In this document: positions 2,291 to 14,327 of the stretch, piece after piece
Numbering within the stretch: the stretch's first letter is position 1
Layout of the letters: each line of letters opens with the position of its first letter
NCBI GenBank assembly: GCA_903813345.2
Contig: CAIIXF020000001.1
Span: 20,274,001-20,338,000 of the forward strand
DNA length: 64,000 nt
Origin: Owenia fusiformis
Lineage: Eukaryota
Direction: 5' to 3'
Made by a program: the position numbers and the translations under genes
The notes under the pieces: generated by a model
Seen by the model: only the letters and a program-made list of their open reading frames with translations
Database searches by the model: none
What the model was told of the DNA's origin: nothing

Positions 2291-3986
2291 TTGAAGAACG
2301 TTTGTGAACCTCCAAGTGTTCCGGGTTAGCCAAGTATTCCGACTCTTGCTGAAGTATTCTGACTTGGCCCAAGTATTCTGGGTTTACTTATTTTATCAAA
2401 TACAGGGTGATCAATAAATAAGGTAAAAGTATCTGGCATTTTGTAAATATTGGTCCAAACATCTTGAAATTTGGTCAGAATATACCTTGTACATTTCTGA
2501 ATTAAAACATATAAATATATAACTTCTGCCATCTGATTTGTTAATATTATAGTTACTATGGCAGCTGGAGTCGGGGGTACCCGGGGCAATTTCATTGCGT
2601 CCAATTTGAATAAAAAATGATAAAAAGCACATCTTTTTCAAACTGAAAAGAAATAAACGTTGGTGCCAGCATTTATTGTTTTAATACTTTGTTTCCATTG
2701 TTACATATTTTCTTCCAAATTTGATGTTTGATGTCACGGAAAAGATAAATATATAATGAAAACTGATGTGGTCATATAGAGTCTATGACACAGGTCAATG
2801 ATGAAAACAATCCCCACAGAAGAGATTTGATGAGAGCAAAGAGGAAGAAGCTAAGGGGCCTGCAAAACGTTTCACATTGCACTGGGGATAATGCTCCGTC
2901 TCACAATGCTATTCTCACGGTACAAACCATTGAAGCACTGGGTTTCCCACTGTAAGGTCATGTACTATACTCGCCTGACTTATCCCCTTATGATTATACC
3001 GCCATGCCGGTGAGCTGAAGAGGGAGTTGAGAGAGTTTCTCATGGGATAACTTGAAGTCAGCCGTCTTTTGCAGTCTATGGGAAAATGGGTTTAAAAAGT
3101 GTTCAAAGACTGGAGTAGTAGACATGAACTATATATAATGTTAAAAACAAAGGACATTAAGTAGCAGTTATGGAGTATGAAATAAGAATATGATATGCCA
3201 TTTTAATTGTGATTTTAAAAATATTATCAAAAGTGTTTCGACTCAAAATTTAGTTTTTTGATAGTTGCCCCGGGTCTTCATGCTTTCTGTTGCTATGGCA
3301 ACCATAACTTCAACCAATCACATCACTTTGATCTGTAACTTATTATATCAATTCAATAATGTTTGAACATTATTCTGTGCTAATTTTATGAGGATTGGGT
3401 AAAATCTGAAGAAATGCCAGATACTTTTACCTTATTTATTGATCACCCTGTACACTCGATACGGTGATTTTCAATTTATAATATCAATTTTAGGTTTCTT
3501 CAAACATGACTGTTGAAATTAAGCGAATGAAACCACTTATAATGTGGCTGCCTCGTTCACAAAAGGCTTTCCATTTATTCATATAAACTAACAGGGTACC
3601 CATTGGGAATGTAAAATCCCCGGTTGTTCGACTTTTGAACCATGGGACACTCCTGAGCAATAGAATATTTAGACAGAATATATTAATATAATTAGGCTGG
3701 ATCTAATTTTGGAAAATGGGCCTTTAGAAAAAATGGGCCTAGATTTTAAAAATTGGGTCCATATTTTTAAAAATTGGGTCAAAAATTTCAACGAGTCAAC
3801 ATTTTAGGACTCTCTTTTTTTATCCTAGCATTTTTCCAGCAAGATTTTATTTTTTGAACCCTCTCTTGTGAATTATAAGATCATAACATAAGCGATCTCG
3901 GAACACTTGGGTTGTCAGAACAGTTGGGCAAAATTCAGAACACTTGGGTAGCCCAGAACAGTTGAGCTTCCACAAACGTTCTTCAA
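2291..3986. mobile_element. TIR element interrupted by a mariner
   Basis: TTGAAGAACGTTTGTG ... CACAAACGTTCTTCAA terminal inverted repeats, with subterminal CCAAGTRTTC-type repeats. Confidence 0.6.
2403..3450 (+). mobile_element. Decayed mariner (Tc1/mariner) DNA transposon
   Basis: TIR CAGGGTGATCAATAAATAAGGTAAAAGTATCTGGCATTT at both ends, TA on both flanks. The internal remnant near 2875-2997 translates to DNAPSH...GHVLYSPDLSPYDY, matching the mariner HDNA..H and YSPDLAP.D motifs, with stops and frameshifts. Confidence 0.9.
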
Positions 3987-5216: not shown

Positions 5217-6023
5217 CACAGGCTGGTATCGAAAGATTTGTCCGCTGTGACTGAGCATGTTATTTTTCATAAAAACACTAAGAAAACCACACAATTTATT
5301 TTTAACTCATATGTTTCGTTATATCAAAAAAACTTCTTACTCCATGCAATGTATATTTCATTTGCGAGTAACTTTCACTTATGTTTGAAGGCCTATAATG
5401 CTAGGAGAAAAAGCTATTGAAAATAGCGCCGGAGTATCATACTCCAAAATGTTACGTTTATTTTTTATTTTTTTAATGGCACGATATAATGACATGATAA
5501 TATTTACATATGTTTTCATCATAACTCTGAAGGTATTAATGAGATATTGATGCATTGGGTCTTTTTAATTTTTAATAAAAAATTATGTTTATTTTTTGTC
5601 CGCTGTGACGGAGCAGTTGCAATGTGAACTGTTAAACTGCTCCGTCACAGGGGACAAAAGATTTATAAACATTATTTTTTATAAAAAATTAAAAAGACCC
5701 AATACTTCCAGATCTCATCAATACATTCAAAGTTATGCTGAAAAAATATGTAAATATTATTGTGTCACTATATCATGCCATCAAAAAGTTAAAAATGAAA
5801 TGGTACGTTATAGAGTATGATACTCTGGCGCTGTTTTCAATAGCTTTTACTCATAGCATTATTGGACTTGAAACAGAAGTGAAGGTTACCCACAAATGAT
5901 ATATCCATTGCATGGAGTAAGTTATTTTCTTTGATATAACGAAACATATGAGCTAAAAAATAAATTGTTAGTTTTCATAAAAATAGTATGCTCCATAGAC
6001 AAATCTTTCGAGACCAGCTTGTG
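5217..6023. mobile_element. Fold-back MITE with CAC termini and 5-bp TSD (Transib-like)
   Basis: Two inverted arms of about 400 bp meet near 5625. Ends CACAGGCTGGTATCGAAAGATTTGTC / GACAAATCTTTCGAGACCAGCTTGTG. AATAT duplicated at 5212-5216 and 6024-6028. Confidence 0.85.
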
Positions 6024-6129
6024 AATATCATATTAAAGAAGATTGGTCATTTTATGAACACTATGAACAATATCGTAAAACCCTGACATATTCAAGACAT
6101 ATACAGTAAACTCTTTCAATACATAATAA

Positions 6130-6300
6130 CATCATTGCCAACTGTGCGAGTTTTGCCATGTGAACATAGAAACTTGCGACCACATCATCTTTAATTGTGA
6201 CTGTACAAAACAGTTTTGGAAATCAATTATAGATAATACTTTAAAAGATCTCGACATTTTTTCTCTGCTTACAGTATTATTTGGTAACCCAAAATAATAA
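6130..6300 (+). mobile_element. 3' remnant of an L1/Tx1-type LINE ORF2 (C-terminal zinc knuckle)
   Basis: Translates to LCEFCHVNIETCDHIIFNCDCTKQFWKSI, the Cx2C..ET..H....C......W motif. Confidence 0.65.
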
Positions 6301-7099
6301 GAGAATATAATAATATAATAATTAACAAGAGCTTCCAAATCATTAAACTAAGGCATATTTAGATTGTTGTTTAAAAATGAACTGATTTTAACAGTATGAT
6401 GTTATGAGTGGTGAATGTGGGTGAATGGGTAATTTTCACATTTTTGTATACATTTTAAAGGACAAGTCTCGGTTTGGAGAACAGTCTACTGGGCTTATAT
6501 TATAATTTTTTTCATGAAAAATATAGAAATATCACCCAAATTAAATTCTGAATATTCAAAAAATTCTTCAAGATGTAAAAATATATCACAATTGTTCGAA
6601 GCAGGGGTAACGTGCAGTAGACCAATTCAATAAAATACAAGTCTCTATTTGGAGAAAGAAGTTCATCAATGTACTGGGCTAATAATGTTTTTATGAAATA
6701 TCACCCAAATAAAATTATGACTATTCCAAAGAAAACATTCAAATCTATATCATGTAAAAAAATCAAAGACTGGAATTCAAAATGGCCACCTTTTCACAAG
6801 AAAAATAACGCAACTGCAAGCACTAGTTAACAGCTTTGGTCAAACTTTTGTAGGCTAATGTCTAATGGTCATAAAACCTCTATTCAAGAAAGAAAGCGAT
6901 TCGATCAAATATGTTTTGTTTGATGGGATTTGCTACTCAGAAAGTTGTTGTATTTCTACGTTTATCATTGTATCTGAATACTCGGTCCAGAATCAAATGA
7001 TTTGCCGAGAACCTTATAAGATGCTGTTATATTTGTTTTAATAGTAGTTATCCCACTGAACGAAGTTCGAGGGGGATATAGAAAAGCCATCCGTCCGTT

Positions 7100-7935
7100 A
7101 GAAAATTAGAAAATGACAAGGAAAATATATACCCTCCTGAACTCAAACTGAACAAGGAAAATGCAAATAACGATGTAGCAACATTTCTCGACATGAAACT
7201 CACAATAGAACACAAGAAAATTACTACACAAATATATGATAAGAGAGAGGATTTTAATTTCAATATAGTTTCCTATCCAGACCTTTCGGGAAACATTCCA
7301 AGAAAACAATCATATGGAGTCTATCCGTGTCACAGATAATCAAGAGTCTGCAGTGTTGAAAAAATTGCTTCCAAAAGAATCAAGTCCTTGGGGAAAAAAT
7401 TAATATCTCAAGGATATAAGAAAGAAACACTGTCAGCATATATCAAAAAGACAATTGCTAAAAATGAATGGATACAGATAAAATACAAAAAATCAAATAT
7501 TAAAGATATGGTCAGAGTTTTAAGACTAATAAGGAAATGAGAAAAACAACAAGAATGAACAGAATCTAGATATCAGTCTCCGAAATGAGGGTAAACTATA
7601 GAAGAAAAACAGCAACAAAAACAAACATCGATAAAGACAAAGGGGAAGGGGAGTGTTACCGGTAGAAAAAGCGTTAACCCACCGACGTGTAGTCACAAGT
7701 CTGCAGACCCGACACCAAACAAGACCAAAGAAGAAAACTAATAGGGAGACAGAAGACCAAGAAAGAAGAAACTAAAGAAGACAAGAAAATAACAACAACA
7801 GAAAAAAGAAGCTAAGAAGACAAAGAGTGAAAGGAAAAGACAAATAAAATCAGAATAAGAAGGAATCAACAGCAACAACAAATAGATTTTCAAGCTGGAC
7901 TGAATGATGATGACATGAACAGCATATAAACAAGA
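7100..7935 (+). mobile_element. 5'-truncated Penelope-like retroelement (RT C-terminus plus A-rich 3' region)
   Basis: 7106-7540 translates to IYPPELKLNKEN..ATFLDMKLTI..TQIYDKREDFNFNIVSYPDLSGNIPRKQSYGVY..RVCS..KLISQGY with one disruption, typical of PLE RT/thumb. Flanked by CGTCCGTT at 7092-7099 and 7936-7943. Confidence 0.8.
7642..7710 (+). ncRNA. Putative twister self-cleaving ribozyme (circularly permuted, P5-type)
   Basis: Manual match to the twister core: P2' GGG, GA, T1' GTG ... TAA, P2 CCC, T2 AC, C-nnn-G, P4 TGTAG, T, T1 CAC, AA, T2' GT, P4' CTGCA. P1 is weak. Confidence 0.6.
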
Positions 7936-8048
7936 CGTCCGTTCATCCGTCCGTCTGTTCGTCCATCCGTCCGTTCGTCCGTCCGTTCGTGGTCGTGATC
8001 GTGGTCGTGATCATCCCGCTTTTTGTCATCGCCGTTTAGGAAAACTGC

Positions 8049-8823
8049 TTCACCACCCTTAGATATCTCATCAAATAAATGTCAAAAATATATTGGTCCC
8101 TGGAAATCTCCCTCGTAATATATTACTTGACAAATCTATCATTTCTAATTGGGGCATATTGTGGGAAAACCCAGGTTCAGTTGCAAATATTCCATTTTCT
8201 GCTAGAACCATCTTCTTCAAATGGCAGTGTTTGAAATATCGCAAATGTTTGTTTTCTAGCACAAAGGGCATGAGGGTAATTTGTTTATATATGATCGCCT
8301 CAATTGTTGAATTTTGTAGACCTTCAAATGCATCAAATAAAGCTATTCTGGAATCAAGTTTTGATTCATCCCCCAGACCATTGACTTGAATTGTGCGTAT
8401 ATTTTCCAATGGCTTGTAAACAAGTTTGTGAAAAGACTCTGGTTTGAAAGGATTTTTACCTATCATAAGATACTGCAGATTTACAAGTCCAGTAAATGTA
8501 TGGTTTCCAAAAATAGCTATTTTGTTCAGATCAATGTCCAACACTTCCAAGTTCTGATATAGTTGTCCTAACAACCCATCAGGCAAATGAGTTATGCAAT
8601 TATTATATAGTCTAAGGACTGTTATATCTCTTGGTAACTCTTGTGGCAATGACGCAATATTTCTTGATGAGCAATCGGCAGTGAGGCCAACACAGTCACA
8701 CACTTGACAGCTGCTTTTGTGTTTTGATTCCAATGCATTTCTAGAAGCAGATATTAAGTTTCCATAAACATGTACCAACAAAGATATCAGAAGACAAGCT
8801 ATCATCAGCTGGTATGAAATCAT
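8049..8823 (-). pseudogene. Truncated Toll-like receptor paralog (signal peptide, LRRNT and N-terminal LRRs only)
   Basis: The 250-aa ORF is paralogous to the adjacent TLR. A frameshift near 8085 gives a premature stop at 8071; homology (DIYLMRYLRVVK vs EIYFMIHLKVVK) continues to about 8049, where a HINE element begins. No TM or TIR. Confidence 0.8.
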
Positions 8824-9663
8824 TGTTCTAATATTCCTCAGTACTTAAAATTGAAATTCAATTGGGATTCAATTTTTGTCTTGTTTATATATGTATTTGA
8901 ATTGTACATGTAATTTGGACCCATTAATTATAGAAAATAAAAGGAAGTAGCAAAAACAGGAAGAATGAAACCTCATTTTATCAAAAGAAATCTTCCTGTT
9001 TTATGACATTGTGAACACTGTAATCTTAAAAGATATTGTGATATTGACTTTGGCTATCAGCCCTTATGTATTAGCAAAGTTCAGTCTGGTGACATTGTTC
9101 CATCCACCTACTTTTCTGTTAGACAGCATGCTGAGATGGAAACAATTTCTCAAAGTCATTGCTTGGCACATTGACCACTGTCCACAGAAGAACATTCATA
9201 ACTAGATATATTTGAAAAAGTTATTGTGTTAGATTGACATAAAAGTATTTTTACAGCCATAATTCCAGACATAAAGGCAATCGAATACTGCAAATACAAT
9301 TCAATTACATGTAGTAATATTAGACTAAACTGATCAAAGCCATGATATGTAAAATCTTAATCTTGGCTTATACATGGAATATAGGATTACTTATATAATA
9401 ACATTATCAAACCAAGTTAGTGAGAGAGTTAAAAATGTCAGATTTTTAACAGGTTCATTAGGAATCCTGATTGCAACTCCTATATGTTTTGTTTATAAAC
9501 TTTATGTGTCACTGACGTTAATGGTTAACAGAATCAAGGATATGAGTTCAGGTCGAACTTAAATATCATAGAGTATCATTAAGTTTTTAACTTCTCATCA
9601 AATGTATAGAGGGTCAATTTCTCAATAGGTCAATCTACAAATCTACATGTAGATAGTGTTTCA

Positions 9664-11951
9664 TTATCCAATAAGTTTTTGTAGAACTTCATTGTCACCA
9701 TCATTACTCTGGTATAAATACTGGCTGTCTTCATCTCCCTGGTATCTTGGGTCACCAAGAGCATCTTTCATCTTCCTCCAGAACAGCTGTTTCCTGTCAT
9801 CATCCTCACTCCACTCCAGGTACACCTGGGTCTCAAGTAGTGAACGTAGAGTGGGTGTGATCAGCTCTGGGGGTAGGACATCCACAGGCTCTTTTAGTAT
9901 CAATATCAAACAGTCTCGCCCCCTGGTAGCAAGCTCACCTCTGGCAAGGTTCATTTCAAATGTGCACCAACCACTTCGGAGAAAATTATGGCTGATAATC
10001 AGAATTATTTTGTTGCTTTTGCTGATGCTTTCAATGATAATGTCAGCAATGTAAGCACCTGGCATGAAGTTGCGGTCATCTATGCATATATTATAGTTGT
10101 ATTTATCTGCTAGATGTGCATATATGTTGGTCAGTGCCCAGTTTTTGTCCAGAGAGCTGTAACTCATAAATCCATCAAAGTCAAACTGAAAATCAACCTG
10201 TTGATGACGTCTGAGTAATGCCCTTATAAGAAGGGCTAGATAGTGTATTTTGTATCTACGCCTGTAGATACAGATAACAAGCACACTGCCTAGAACAACA
10301 AGTCCAAAAGATACCACAGGTGGAATTATCATAGCCTTCCAGCAATCCCATTCCATCCCAGGTAACAAAATGTCATTGATTGCCACTTCTGAGCCATTGA
10401 TGTGAATACATGTTACTTCTTGCCATTTGTAGATGTTATAACTATGTGTCTGCATCCAGTCTATAAGCTTGAAAGAATCACAGTTACAGATCAAAGGATT
10501 ATGTCTGATGTCTATTGTCAAATTCGTTCTTGATGTTCTTATTAGTTCATCAATTTCCTTTCTTTTGTTCTCTTCAATAGCATTTAAATGATTGTTTGAT
10601 ATATTGAGCAGTCTCATTGATTTAAGCTGTTCCAGTAATATTGTGATCTGTTTCATTTTGTTACCACTTAAGTTGAGAATTTCAAGTCCTGTTGTGTCAA
10701 CAAAGGCCTTTGCATCAATATCTGTAATATCATTGTATGACACATCAATTAGTTGCAGTTGGGAACAGTTTCTGAAGATGGTGGAAGAAGAATTGGAGGA
10801 ATGAAGTATTGCTCTGTTGTTGGCCAAGTCAAGATATTGTAGTCTTTCAAAGTATCCAGTCTCACATGTGAAGAATTCAGGTGCAATTATGCAGTCATTA
10901 TCACTATATACAAGTCTTTCCAAATTAACCAGTCCTTTCAGTGCTCTGCCTATATAAGTGGTGATAAAACTAGCAGAGGCTTCAATGATCTTGATGTTAT
11001 TGTTTCGTTGAAACCTTATTCCATATGGTAAATGACAAGGGGTATAATCCACATTACTCTCTCTCAGATGTACCTCAATGAGGCCCCCAGGAAGAGCCCA
11101 TTCATTTTCACTCATTCTTTTAGAAAATGGGACATATGGATTGTTTTTTTGGAATGAACCTTGACTGTTGCCTTCTATTTTCACAACCTTTAGATGTATC
11201 ATAAAGTATATTTCCAAAAGCACACCCCTGGTCACTGGAAGTACCCCTCTTATTATATTCTTTGACAAATCTATTGTTTCTAAATAGGGCACATATTTAA
11301 AAATCCCTGGTTCAATTGCAAATATTCCATTATCTGTTAAAACCAGGTTTTTCAAATGGCAGTGCTCGAAATATTGAAAATGTTTCTTCTGTAGCATAAA
11401 AGGCATGAGTGTTATATAGTTATATGTGATAGTTTCAATTGTAGAATTTTGTAGACCTTCAAATGCATTGAACAAAGCTATTCTAGCATCAAGTGTTGAT
11501 TCATCCCCGTGCCAGTTCACATGGATGGTGCGAATATTTTTTAATGGCTTGTAAACAAGTTTGTGAAAAGACTCTGGTTTGAAAGGATTTTTACCTATCA
11601 TAAGATACTGCAGATTTACAAGTCCAGTAAATGTATGGTTTCCAAAAATAGCTATTTTGTTCAGATCAATGTCCAACACTTCCAAGTTCTGATATAGTTG
11701 TCCTAACAACCCATCAGGCAAATGTGTTATGCAATTATTATATAGTCTAAGGATTGTTATATCTCTTGGTAACTGTTGTGGCAATGACTCAAGATTTCTT
11801 GATGAACAATCGGCACAACACAGTCACACACATTACAGCTGCTTTTGTGTTTTGTCTCCAATGCATTTCTAGAAGCAGATGTTAAATTTCCATTGATAGG
11901 TACGAAAAGACATGTCAGAAGAAACGCTATTTTCAAGTTGTAGGAAGGCAT
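9664..11951 (-). CDS. Toll-like receptor, single-cysteine-cluster type, intronless; frameshifted near the 5' end in this sequence (possible null allele or pseudogene)
   Basis: Signal peptide and LRRNT lie in ORF 11757-11951. LRRs, LRRCT (NPLICNCD..WM..C), TM helix and TIR (FDGFMSYS, CIDDRNFMPG, FWRKM) lie in ORF 9664-11784. The two frames join if the 7 bp GTGAGGC present in the paralog is restored between 11815 and 11816, giving 764 aa. Confidence 0.92.
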
Positions 11952-12774: not shown

Positions 12775-13943
12775 TTTTAATCACACCATCGGTGGGATAT
12801 AGTCGTCATACTGGTCGTGGTCGTTGTCGTGGTCGTGATCGTGGTCGTGGTCGTGATCGTCCCGCTTTTTGTCATCGCCGTTTAAGGAAAACTGCTCATC
12901 AGATTTTCTCCAAATTCGCAGAGATGATAGAGCATATGAAGTACTAGAGCTGATTTACTTTTGGGTGGCCATCTTGTTTTCTGGCAGCCATTTTGAAGGT
13001 TTTTCGAAAAATCTTGTCATCGCCATTTCAGGAAAACCGTTCATTGGATTTCCTTCAAATTTACACAAATGATAGAGGATATCAAGTACTAGAGCTGATT
13101 AACTTTTGGGCGGCCATCTTGTTTTCTGGCTGTCATTTTGAAGATTTTTCAAAAAATCTTGTCATCGCCATTTCAGAAAATCCGCTCATCAGATTTCTTT
13201 CAAATTTACACACATAATAGAGGATATCAAGTACTAGAGCTGATCAACTTTTGGGCGGCCATCTTGTTTTCTGGTGGCCATTTTGAAGGTTTTTCGAAAA
13301 ATCTTGTCATCGCCATTTCAGGAAAACCGCTAATCGGATTTCCTTCAAATTTACACAAATGATAGAGGATATCAAGTACTAGAGCTGATTAACTTTTGGG
13401 CGGCCATCTTGTTTTCTTGTTCTTCAAATTTGTAAACATAATAGGAGAACAGTTTTCCTGGTTCATAGTGTCTGCCTGTGATCTCGTTCACGTCCTGTGC
13501 CTTGTTCCTAAAAGAACGTAACCTTTGATAACTCAAATACCAGTTGATGGATTAGGTTCAAATTATATATGCTGATGCTTAGAGACAAAGAAGTTCTGCT
13601 CAAGAAGACATTTTCAAGATGGCCACTGAATTTCAAAATGGCCGCCATTTTTCGTAAAAACAACATAATCATTGATAACTCAAATACCAGTGGATGGACT
13701 TGGTTCCAATTTTATATGCTGATGTTTAGGGAAAAAAGAGATCTGCTTCAGAAAAATTTCAAAGGCATCAGCTGAATTTCAAAATGGCTGCCATTTTTCA
13801 TGAAAGAACTCAAATACCATTGGATGGATTTACTTCAAATTTTATATACTGATGCCTAGTGATAAGCTTAGCCTAGCCTATTTATAAAAACATGTTTTTT
13901 TCGGTGGGATTTGCTACTCCGTGGAGTTGCTGTTTTTCTAGTT
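12775..13943 (+). mobile_element. HINE-type element with 145-bp tandem core repeats
   Basis: 5' TTAATCACACCATCGGTGGGATA, (GGTCGT)n microsatellite, about 3.5 units of 145 bp (12880-13415), and 3' GGTGGGAT plus stem-loop GCTACTCCGTGGAGTTGC. Confidence 0.75.
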
Positions 13944-14327
13944 TCATGTTTTTAGTCAAACAAACATCCATCATTCATTATTTGTGCCTTTCTTGACCTT
14001 CCAGTCCCTCTATTGAACATGCTTTAGCATGTCTACACTCTTTAAGTTTATATTTGAAAATACTTTCTAGACTTAAATGAATGTGACTTAGCATTTGGGT
14101 CCTCGAGACTTATGGATTAGCCTCTTGGTAACTGAAGGTTTGACATTGCAAGTTAAAGGAACCGAACAAGCAGCTTCCCAAGCTGTTCAAGATCTGAATG
14201 ACACATTCATTCAATAATAAGTTCCAATTGATATAAAATATGGTAAAACTATTACATGTTCTACATATGTTTCATGTATTTTCTCTTTCCATAAGCCTAT
14301 AATTTAAATTTAATATATTTGTTCCAG

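Follow-up and report, generated by a model that had tools for sequence, protein, structure and literature searches.

A predicted twister-type ribozyme motif in the 3' region of Naiad-type Penelope-like retroelements, with a probably eroded copy in Owenia fusiformis

A stretch of 64,000 nucleotides from the genome of Owenia fusiformis (assembly GCA_903813345.2, contig CAIIXF020000001.1, positions 20,274,001 to 20,338,000 of the forward strand), in the following called the window and counted from its first letter, contains the 3' end of a Penelope-like retroelement (PLE). Behind the frame of this element, the original prediction, made from the letters of the sequence alone, had recognized a motif resembling twister ribozymes, permuted in the type-P5 manner and cleaved between U7675 and A7676, and had suggested that this PLE family may use a twister instead of a hammerhead. 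On direct inspection of the sequence, every letter assigned to the motif is present on the + strand at its coordinate. The motif occupies a GC-richer island within a strongly A-rich stretch (AT skew of 0.475 over 7501-8000), and the frame of the reverse transcriptase (RT) ends at 7540, both as had been described. We consider it probable, with a chance of roughly three in four, that the motif is a copy, probably eroded, of a predicted twister-type self-cleaving ribozyme conserved in the 3' untranslated regions (UTRs) of Naiad-type PLEs. Many elements of this type carry a conserved and covarying twister-type fold on the sense strand of their 3' UTR or of the region between two open reading frames (ORFs). 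The features of the locus are collected in Table 1.

The assignment of the host element comes from a homologue search only; with Pfam, neither RT nor GIY-YIG is detected in the ORF pieces of the window. For the 85-amino acid (aa) ORF piece 7082-7336, 79 homologous proteins are found, including proteins of 913 and 919 aa with an N-terminal GIY-YIG domain, the one of 913 aa possessing RVT_1 in addition. In tblastn alignments, P0003 covers 7106-7486, aa 773-876 of P0031 correspond to 7127-7432, and aa 781-912 of the 919 aa of P0077 to 7127-7513. The GIY-YIG domains of P0031 (aa 53-136) and P0077 are located within aa 53-152, RVT_1 of P0031 comprises aa 564-760, and the ORFs of three related loci from the survey described below (L009, L016, and L053) align to aa 8-904. 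Only the last ~130 aa of the homologues are kept in the window, at 7106-7513, and the endonuclease domain is known from the relatives alone. Similarly, the DKA motif and the CxC linker are seen by eye in P0031 and lie outside the window remnant; DKA instead of DKG and the CxC linker are marks of Naiads in passages of Craig et al. (2021, PMC8557442). As the remnant aligns to the C-termini of RT proteins that begin with GIY-YIG and is interrupted by an in-frame stop, it is, judged by its sequence, a 5'-truncated and decayed PLE copy of the Naiad type with permuted domain order. The earlier assignment to the PLEs is thereby supported, its homologues being PLEs with N-terminal GIY-YIG and C-terminal RT. 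Further likeness to the Naiad clade may be seen in the selenocysteine insertion sequence (SECIS) elements and the tandem arrangement (L020) of relatives, and in a microsatellite at the likely insertion end of the window copy; a preference of Naiads for inserting into microsatellites is reported in the same passages. The window copy differs in that no more than the final ~0.8 kb of an element is present. Within the window, neither a second element copy nor a pseudo-long terminal repeat (pseudo-LTR) is found, and Rfam scans detect no hammerhead in the window nor, at E-value limits between 1 and 5, in 40 related loci.

In the window copy, 11 of 11 core pairs form (3 in P2, 3 in T1, 2 in T2, and 3 in P4), and the core letters of the Rfam consensus are present as GAGUG at 7651-7655, UAA at 7675-7677, and GUCACAAGUC at 7692-7701. 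The Twister-P5 model of Rfam (RF02684, clan CL00120; gathering score 37.6 bits) aligns with its positions 1-58 to 7648-7704 of the + strand, scoring 20.8 bits with an E-value of 0.01 in a scan of 106 nt, and this alignment has the very layout of the original prediction, i.e., P2 GGG/CCC, GAGUG, UAA, and the P4 loop GUCACAAGUC, with P1 being skipped. As far as the covariance models of Rfam are concerned, the prediction is upheld in that Twister-P5 matches, as the sole twister model, with its score of 20.8 lying below the gathering score. The outcome of such scans varies with scan size, filters being laxer in the scan of 106 nt. In scans of small regions or single loci, Twister-P5 is the best or only family for the window (20.8 bits) and for the related loci L041 (23.0 bits), L043 (24.2 bits), and L002 (12.8 bits), and P1 is skipped in all four alignments. 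A strict descriptor, which demands a P2 of 3-4 bp, GA, a T1 of 3 bp, UAA, a T2 of 2 bp, a P4 of 3 bp, and the loop GU NNN AAG N C, has exactly one match in the window, at 7648-7704 on the + strand, and none on the minus strand. Searched on both strands, 300 dinucleotide-shuffled versions of the 64 kb contain 2 matches in total, so that the real match is beyond chance, the descriptor being somewhat post hoc in having been drawn up after the motif was known. A relaxed version, with 1-2 mismatches and any A-N-G loop, was abandoned for lack of discrimination, giving 182 matches on the plus and 202 on the minus strand over the 80 related loci.

These related loci are metagenome contigs of unknown hosts, the best 80 of 472 relatives, searched with an alignment of the RT C-terminus. 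A pattern modelled on the P4 loop of the Rfam consensus occurs in 7 of them. Each time it follows the ORF on the sense strand, the minus strand giving no match, and these 7 loci share the upstream parts as well, namely GGG(G)-GAG-N-G and UAA-CCC(C) followed by GC or AC. In a pattern scan of viral contigs, none of the 32 matches is a relative. A model comprising the pattern-matched loci and the window, and describing P2, P3, and P4 only (R1), has 25 matches with E-values of at most 10 over the 80 loci, 23 of them full-length, on the + strand, and downstream of the ORF, the other 2 being weak and on the - strand. Built from 21 locus matches with the window left out, a second model (R2) matches once in each of 24 of the 80 loci, always on the + strand, and the 24 matches comprise 21 distinct sequences (L007 equals L009, and L018, L019, and L020 are equal). 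Where the 3' flank measures at least 900 nt, 20 of 28 loci possess the motif, and where it measures at least 1000 nt, 17 of 23 do; for loci with at least 300 nt of flank the count is 24 of 74, with many contigs ending too early to tell. When R2 is run without filters over 6000-10000 of the window, the motif is the top match (12.9 bits, E = 0.033). A third model, made from 9 loci and excluding both the window and the main subgroup (R3), places 7648-7704 of the + strand first when both strands of the 64 kb are searched without filters (16.5 bits, E = 0.034), the next best match scoring 8.3 bits.

With respect to the first stop codon, three spacings are observed, the position being constant inside each group. 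In a main group of 17 loci the motif lies 285-351 nt past it, mostly with a SECIS-like match in between; in L031, L022, L021, and the window the distance is 32-108 nt, and in L045, L024, L043, and L041 it is 364-594 nt. Matches to SECIS_1 exceed the gathering score of 35 at L017:910-973 (37.5 bits) and L047:1987-2048 (38.8 bits) and remain below it, at 23-32 bits, in L040, L053, L057, L045, L007, L028, L005, L004, L016, L033, and L026. They start at the first stop or a few bases past it, ~230-290 nt upstream of the twister-like motif, and fit the selenoprotein-encoding Naiads reported in part of Craig et al. (2021, PMC8557442). No SECIS element is found in the window copy. L020 represents a tandem in which the end of one ORF (53-1918) is followed by the motif (2427-2504) and then by the N-terminus (aa 9-150) of a second ORF at 3414-3872, which begins ~910 nt beyond the motif. 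Microsatellite-like matches are located at the ends of L059, L067, and L078.

The fold was compared in model-based alignments and in an anchored parse, which were preferred to MAFFT, the latter having misplaced the subgroup with a T1 strand one base shorter, the UAA of the window, and L043. The parse covers 21 distinct instances, i.e., the window and 20 loci, with L026 set by hand, and has a common order: in the 5' half, P2a (4 nt), GA, T1a (3 nt), 0-2 nt, a palindrome termed PalA, 1-3 nt, P1, and U^AA; in the 3' half, P2b, T2a (2 nt), an optional P3, P4a, the loop GU-T1b-AAG-N-C, and P4b. In relatives, long complementary flanks (P5) enclose the whole motif. In the 21-locus R2 alignment, from which the window is excluded, the share of paired cells is 94.1% (of 253), compared with 73.9 +/- 1.8% after shuffling (reached in 0 of 500 shuffles) and with 27-42% in controls in which the partners were slid by 1-3 columns, and both sides change in 10 of 13 pairs. 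P2 is paired in 92.9% and P4 in 98.4% of the cells, with changes on both sides in all 3 P2 pairs and in 2 of 3 P4 pairs. T1 and T2, which are contained in none of the models used for alignment, are paired in 88.9 and 95.2% of the cells, respectively. T1 occurs as GGG/CCC, GUG/CAC (window and L022), GCG/CGC (L043), GCA/UGC (L031), AGA/UCU (L024), GGU/GCC, and GGU/UCC, and T2 as GC/GC, GC/GU, AC/GU, and CC/GG. The AC/GU version of T2 in the window, which had been described as a compensatory variant, recurs in L057, L031, and L024, and the test proposed with it, covariation among copies of the family, had a positive outcome, as the pairings are kept and covary among the related PLE 3' ends. In the anchored parse, 226 of 252 cells pair, compared with a shuffled mean of 174 (sd 4.6, 0 of 2000), and T1 and T2 alone pair in 93 of 105 cells, compared with 74 (sd 3.5, 0 of 5000), these shuffle statistics being inflated by the shared ancestry of many loci.

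For P5, 18 of 20 loci have a flank duplex of their own that surpasses all or nearly all of the cross-locus controls, of which 0-2 do as well; the exceptions are L043 and the window copy, and the P3 hairpins are wholly different in sequence and length between loci. The minimum free energy (MFE) structures of L041, L022, L031, and L024 show the P5/P2/P3/P4 layout (L031 without P3), whereas in L005, P5, P3, and P4 are formed and P2 is not; the MFE z-scores of these five loci range from -1.9 to -6.2. P2, P3, P4, and P5 as well as both pseudoknots covary across the related loci.

The stretch between T1 and the predicted cut has a peculiar composition. PalA, a perfect palindrome of even length, follows T1a in 21 of 21 instances; it measures at least 6 nt throughout and at least 8 nt in 19 of 21, whereas palindromes of these minimum lengths occur at random positions of the same loci with frequencies of 6.5 and 2.0%, respectively. 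Its centre is always self-complementary (GAUC, GCGC, GGCC, UGCA, or GUAC in relatives and CCGG in the window, where PalA reads UACCGGUA), which a simple hairpin would not need. PalA is followed by 6-12 nt of self-complementary sequence, which are read as P1. In 19 of 21 instances their 3' end coincides with U-1 or adjoins it, and both odd centres and G.U pairs are tolerated. In the window copy only AGCGUU is left of this P1. The region around the motif is a repeat in the host species, represented by many DNA contig pieces that are 82-99% alike across 7200-7928, and position 7673, a G in the window, is a T in most other copies and reads (1108 of a depth of 1172 in X1, 12 of 14 reads in X21, and 8 of 8 in X22). 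With T at 7673, the stretch 7668-7675 becomes self-complementary, an 8-nt palindrome like P1 of the relatives. This G-to-T exchange is the only well-supported difference listed for 7574-7731; 27 weaker ones exist besides, so that no claim is made that the core is better conserved than its flanks among host copies. One DNA contig of X1 jumps from 7651 to 7835, skipping 183 nt and carrying 17 other letters in between, so that the greater part of the motif is absent from at least one copy.

Compared with its relatives, the window copy is probably worn, with a P2 of 3 bp, no P5, no P3 in the anchored parse, and a damaged P1, T1, T2, P4, and the core letters being kept. A poor P1 and a P2 of only 3 bp had been noted in the original prediction, and indeed P2 measures 3 bp and P1 is reduced and weak. 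The possible P5 GGG/CCC of that prediction finds no support: the duplex of the flanks has -5.5 kcal/mol, and 16 of 19 cross-locus controls are equal or better. It is doubtful that the window copy still cuts.

Several observations weigh against the reading as a ribozyme and lend themselves to other explanations. In the window copy, all helices are of 2-5 bp, P5 is missing, the 3' partner base of a fourth P2 pair present in L022 and L021 is lacking, and the MFE is no better than that of shuffled sequences (z of -0.35 and +0.62 in two runs). No twister is found in a scan of the whole window at Rfam gathering scores or in an E-value scan of 601 nt, R2 with default filters has no match in the whole window, and in larger Rfam scans of the related loci a twister is found only in L043. 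Together with a score below gathering, this might indicate that short complementary words within a GC-richer island were picked after the fact. Such a chance resemblance is nevertheless very improbable: it would have to account for a strict descriptor that matches the real window exactly once and 300 shuffled windows twice, for an independent model that puts the motif first in 128 kb, for the same motif in the same place and on the same strand in 24 related PLE loci, for a distance to the ORF end like those of L021, L022, and L031, and for the presence of the family-specific PalA. No more credible is a motif of the host, for example in the 3' UTR of the minus-strand leucine-rich repeat (LRR) gene that ends at 8071. 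This ORF (8071-8823) does end ~370 nt from the motif, and the depth of RNA reads, whose strand depends on the library type, climbs towards 7900. The fold, however, exists on the + strand only, i.e., antisense to the LRR gene, the same motif stands behind PLE ORFs in unrelated contigs, and no RNA read is at least 99% like the window, so other copies account for most of the reads.

The main rival is an element that is shaped like a twister and does not cut, any more or ever, and serves in recognition or initiation by the RT, in dimerization, or in packaging. Its location, the 3' UTR, is the place at which target-primed reverse transcription begins, and PalA could itself be a dimerization site. 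In the largest subgroup, the T1 strand is one base shorter and the loop reads GUUCCAAGGC; U.U occupies the third position of T1 in 9 of 21 sequences, and P2 lacks a pair at position 3, also in 9 of 21. Apart from this subgroup, core letters deviate in L021 (UAG), L024 (GAA with UAAG), L057 (CAA), and L026 (mutated loop). The gathering score of 37.6 is reached by no instance, the best being L043. Host-species RNA-seq reads, present over the motif at a depth of ~8-15, run across the predicted site without any accumulation of read ends at 7675/7676; coming mostly from other copies, these reads neither show nor exclude cleavage at U7675/A7676. Moreover, in the part of PMC11167929 concerned with a canonical PLE, the hammerhead needed protein in order to cut, and its cleavage was dispensable for insertion in vitro, so that even a real twister might be non-essential. 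In spite of these points we regard a non-cutting element as unlikely, though far less so than chance or a host motif. The letters kept across lineages are those that are conserved in Rfam, i.e., GA(G), UAA, and GU.C.CAAG.C, and both pseudoknots that build the active site covary, whereas a mere protein-binding site would not need such a full set.

The occurrence of the motif also has limits that count against the proposed generality. Of the 28 loci whose 3' flank measures at least 900 nt, 8 show no detectable motif, and neither R1 nor R2 finds it in the most distant loci, whose identity to the RT piece of the window is 45-48% (L049, L050, L059, L064, L066-L069, L072-L074, L077, and L078, several of them with 600-1950 nt of flank). 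For eight distant loci, an Rfam scan at E-values of at most 1 reveals neither twister nor hammerhead. The motif is therefore frequent in the clade without being universal, and the distant loci may form a separate PLE lineage without detectable ribozyme.

Hammerhead-less Naiad PLEs dominate many invertebrate genomes. In passages of Craig et al. (2021, PMC8557442), Naiads and most Chlamys are described as devoid of canonical hammerheads, in contrast to all other PLEs. The absence is discussed there as a puzzle, and from the success of these elements without a ribozyme it is argued that hammerheads could be mere parasites of PLEs. According to PMC6765202, a hammerhead is a constant component of canonical PLEs. 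As no canonical hammerhead is reported for the clade, the proposal of a twister in its place fits a gap in the published record, and the motif may explain how Naiad-type PLEs do without a hammerhead. A published link between twisters and PLEs was not found in a literature search that left many subscription papers and the supplements of Craig et al. beyond its reach. The word "twister" does not occur in Craig et al. (2021, PMC8557442), where supplementary file S1 is said to annotate consensus sequences for motifs of the hammerhead core, nor are Penelope or PLEs mentioned by Liu et al. (2021, PMC8501958) on retrotransposon-borne twisters.

If the motif does cut, its task might resemble the one proposed for the hammerheads in the pseudo-LTRs of canonical PLEs, which is the trimming of transcripts to unit length. 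PLEs inserting as partial tandems would yield one transcript with the motif on both sides of an ORF, and self-cleavage at U^A would trim such read-through or tandem transcripts. Cervera and de la Peña (2014, PMC4209133) describe PLE hammerheads with a short palindromic helix III, from which these authors deduced a dimeric action in tandem copies. Like this helix III, PalA and P1 have palindromic sequences, and by analogy the two palindromes next to the cut site might couple two copies. It is conceivable, though less likely than not, that the hammerhead-less Naiads carry a type-P5 twister of their own in the 3' UTR or pseudo-LTR and that it acts as a dimer, in which PalA and P1 pair the two copies of a tandem transcript, or two RNAs, and cutting is thereby limited to multimeric RNA; if true, the dimeric strategy of canonical PLE hammerheads would have been re-invented convergently with another ribozyme class.

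Taken by its parts, the motif can be read as a known twister class in a new host element and with a new architecture, bearing on a published open question. With Twister-P5 it shares the order P2, GAG-N-G, P1 region, UAA, P2', GC, and P4 loop GUC-N-CAAG-C-C as well as the conserved letters, a T1 of 3 bp, a T2 of 2 bp, and the optional P3 and P5. It differs in scoring 12.8-24.2 bits compared with a gathering score of 37.6 and in the additional perfect palindrome between T1 and P1 in every parsed instance, whereas in the structure line of Rfam a single P1 directly follows T1a. In addition, U-1 belongs to P1, which forms a very short hairpin or palindrome; instead of GC/GC, T2 frequently reads AC/GU or CC/GG, and the T1 strand is shortened in the largest PLE subgroup. 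The Rfam models miss an architecture of this kind, in which a palindromic stem is added, P1 is short and palindromic, and T1 and T2 are altered. The likeness to PLE hammerheads, as far as these are covered by the cited parts of PMC4209133, consists in a small motif of a self-cleaving class (predicted in the present case) in the repeated non-coding flank of a PLE, with a short palindromic helix beside the cut site, represented here by PalA and P1, and in tandem, as in L020. In contrast, the ribozyme class is another one without relation in sequence or fold, and the host clade is that of the PLEs with N-terminal endonuclease. Twisters built into retrotransposons are described for Schistosoma in parts of Liu et al. 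(2021, PMC8501958) and PMC7761336, where variants are located at the 5' ends of Perere-3/RTE non-LTR retrotransposons; canonical twisters cut one base 3' of P1 according to the former. Those twisters are P1-open, with P1 stemming in part from the target-site duplication, whereas the predicted PLE motif is located in the 3' UTR or inter-ORF region, is P5-open, and has a P1 hairpin of its own. Retrotransposon-borne twisters would thereby be extended from the 5' ends of non-LTR elements to the 3' regions of PLEs. Should many Naiads possess a twister in the corresponding position, self-cleaving RNA would be nearly general among PLEs, two unrelated ribozyme classes would have been enlisted for one task, and a comparison of both classes would make the function of PLE ribozymes testable.

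Table 1. Features of the PLE remnant and of the twister-like motif in the window.
Feature	Position	Strand	Basis or remark
C-terminal remnant (~130 aa) of Naiad-type PLE ORF, 5'-truncated	7106-7540	+	tblastn; in-frame stop 7337-7339
A-rich 3' UTR of the element, repeated in the host genome	7541-7929	+	AT skew; contig pieces
Twister-like motif, type-P5 order, probably eroded copy	7648-7705	+	Rfam Twister-P5, R2, R3, strict descriptor
P2 5' strand GGG	7648-7650	+	Partner CCC 7678-7680
Conserved GA, then T1 5' strand GUG	7651-7652, 7653-7655	+	T1 partner CAC 7694-7696
PalA, UACCGGUA, perfect palindrome of 8 nt, insertion between T1 and P1	7657-7664	+	Common to parsed instances
Remnant of short P1 hairpin/palindrome abutting the cut site	7668-7675	+	Comparison with relatives and other copies
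UAA; predicted scissile bond U7675/A7676	7675-7677	+	Aligned to UAA of the Twister-P5 consensus
P2 3' strand CCC, then T2 5' strand AC	7678-7680, 7681-7682	+	T2 partner GU 7699-7700
Letters of the C7683/G7687 pair	7683, 7687	+	Pair of the original prediction
P4 hairpin	Stem 7688-7691 with 7702-7705	+	Strands originally predicted as UGUAG 7688-7692 / CUGCA 7701-7705
P4 loop GUCACAAGUC	7692-7701	+	Holds T1 3' strand 7694-7696 and T2 3' strand 7699-7700
CCC of the originally proposed P5	7708-7710	+	Letters present
CCGT-like microsatellite, likely 3' insertion boundary	About 7929-8010		Sequence, extreme depth

The microsatellite reaches a word depth of up to ~150,000 in X1 and ~400 RNA reads over 7929-8000, with many reads looping back inside it. 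Beyond it, two ORFs that resemble Toll-like receptors are located on the minus strand, one of 250 aa at 8071-8823 with LRR_8 (E = 3e-16) and another of 706 aa at 9664-11784 with LRR_8 (E = 7e-31) and TIR (E = 1e-16). The PLE fragment is situated directly downstream of the former and on the opposite strand, with ~370 nt between the twister-like motif and the end of this ORF. Upstream of the PLE fragment, a weak zf-RVT match of 16.9 bits (E = 0.011), which is below the cut-off, is found in an open stretch of 55 aa at 6130-6294 on the + strand and may represent a remnant of a non-LTR retrotransposon. Just upstream of the fragment, two short stretches are ~81% similar to others in the window (6907-6963 to 13888-13944 and 7047-7098 to 41842-41792), which are probably other dispersed repeats.

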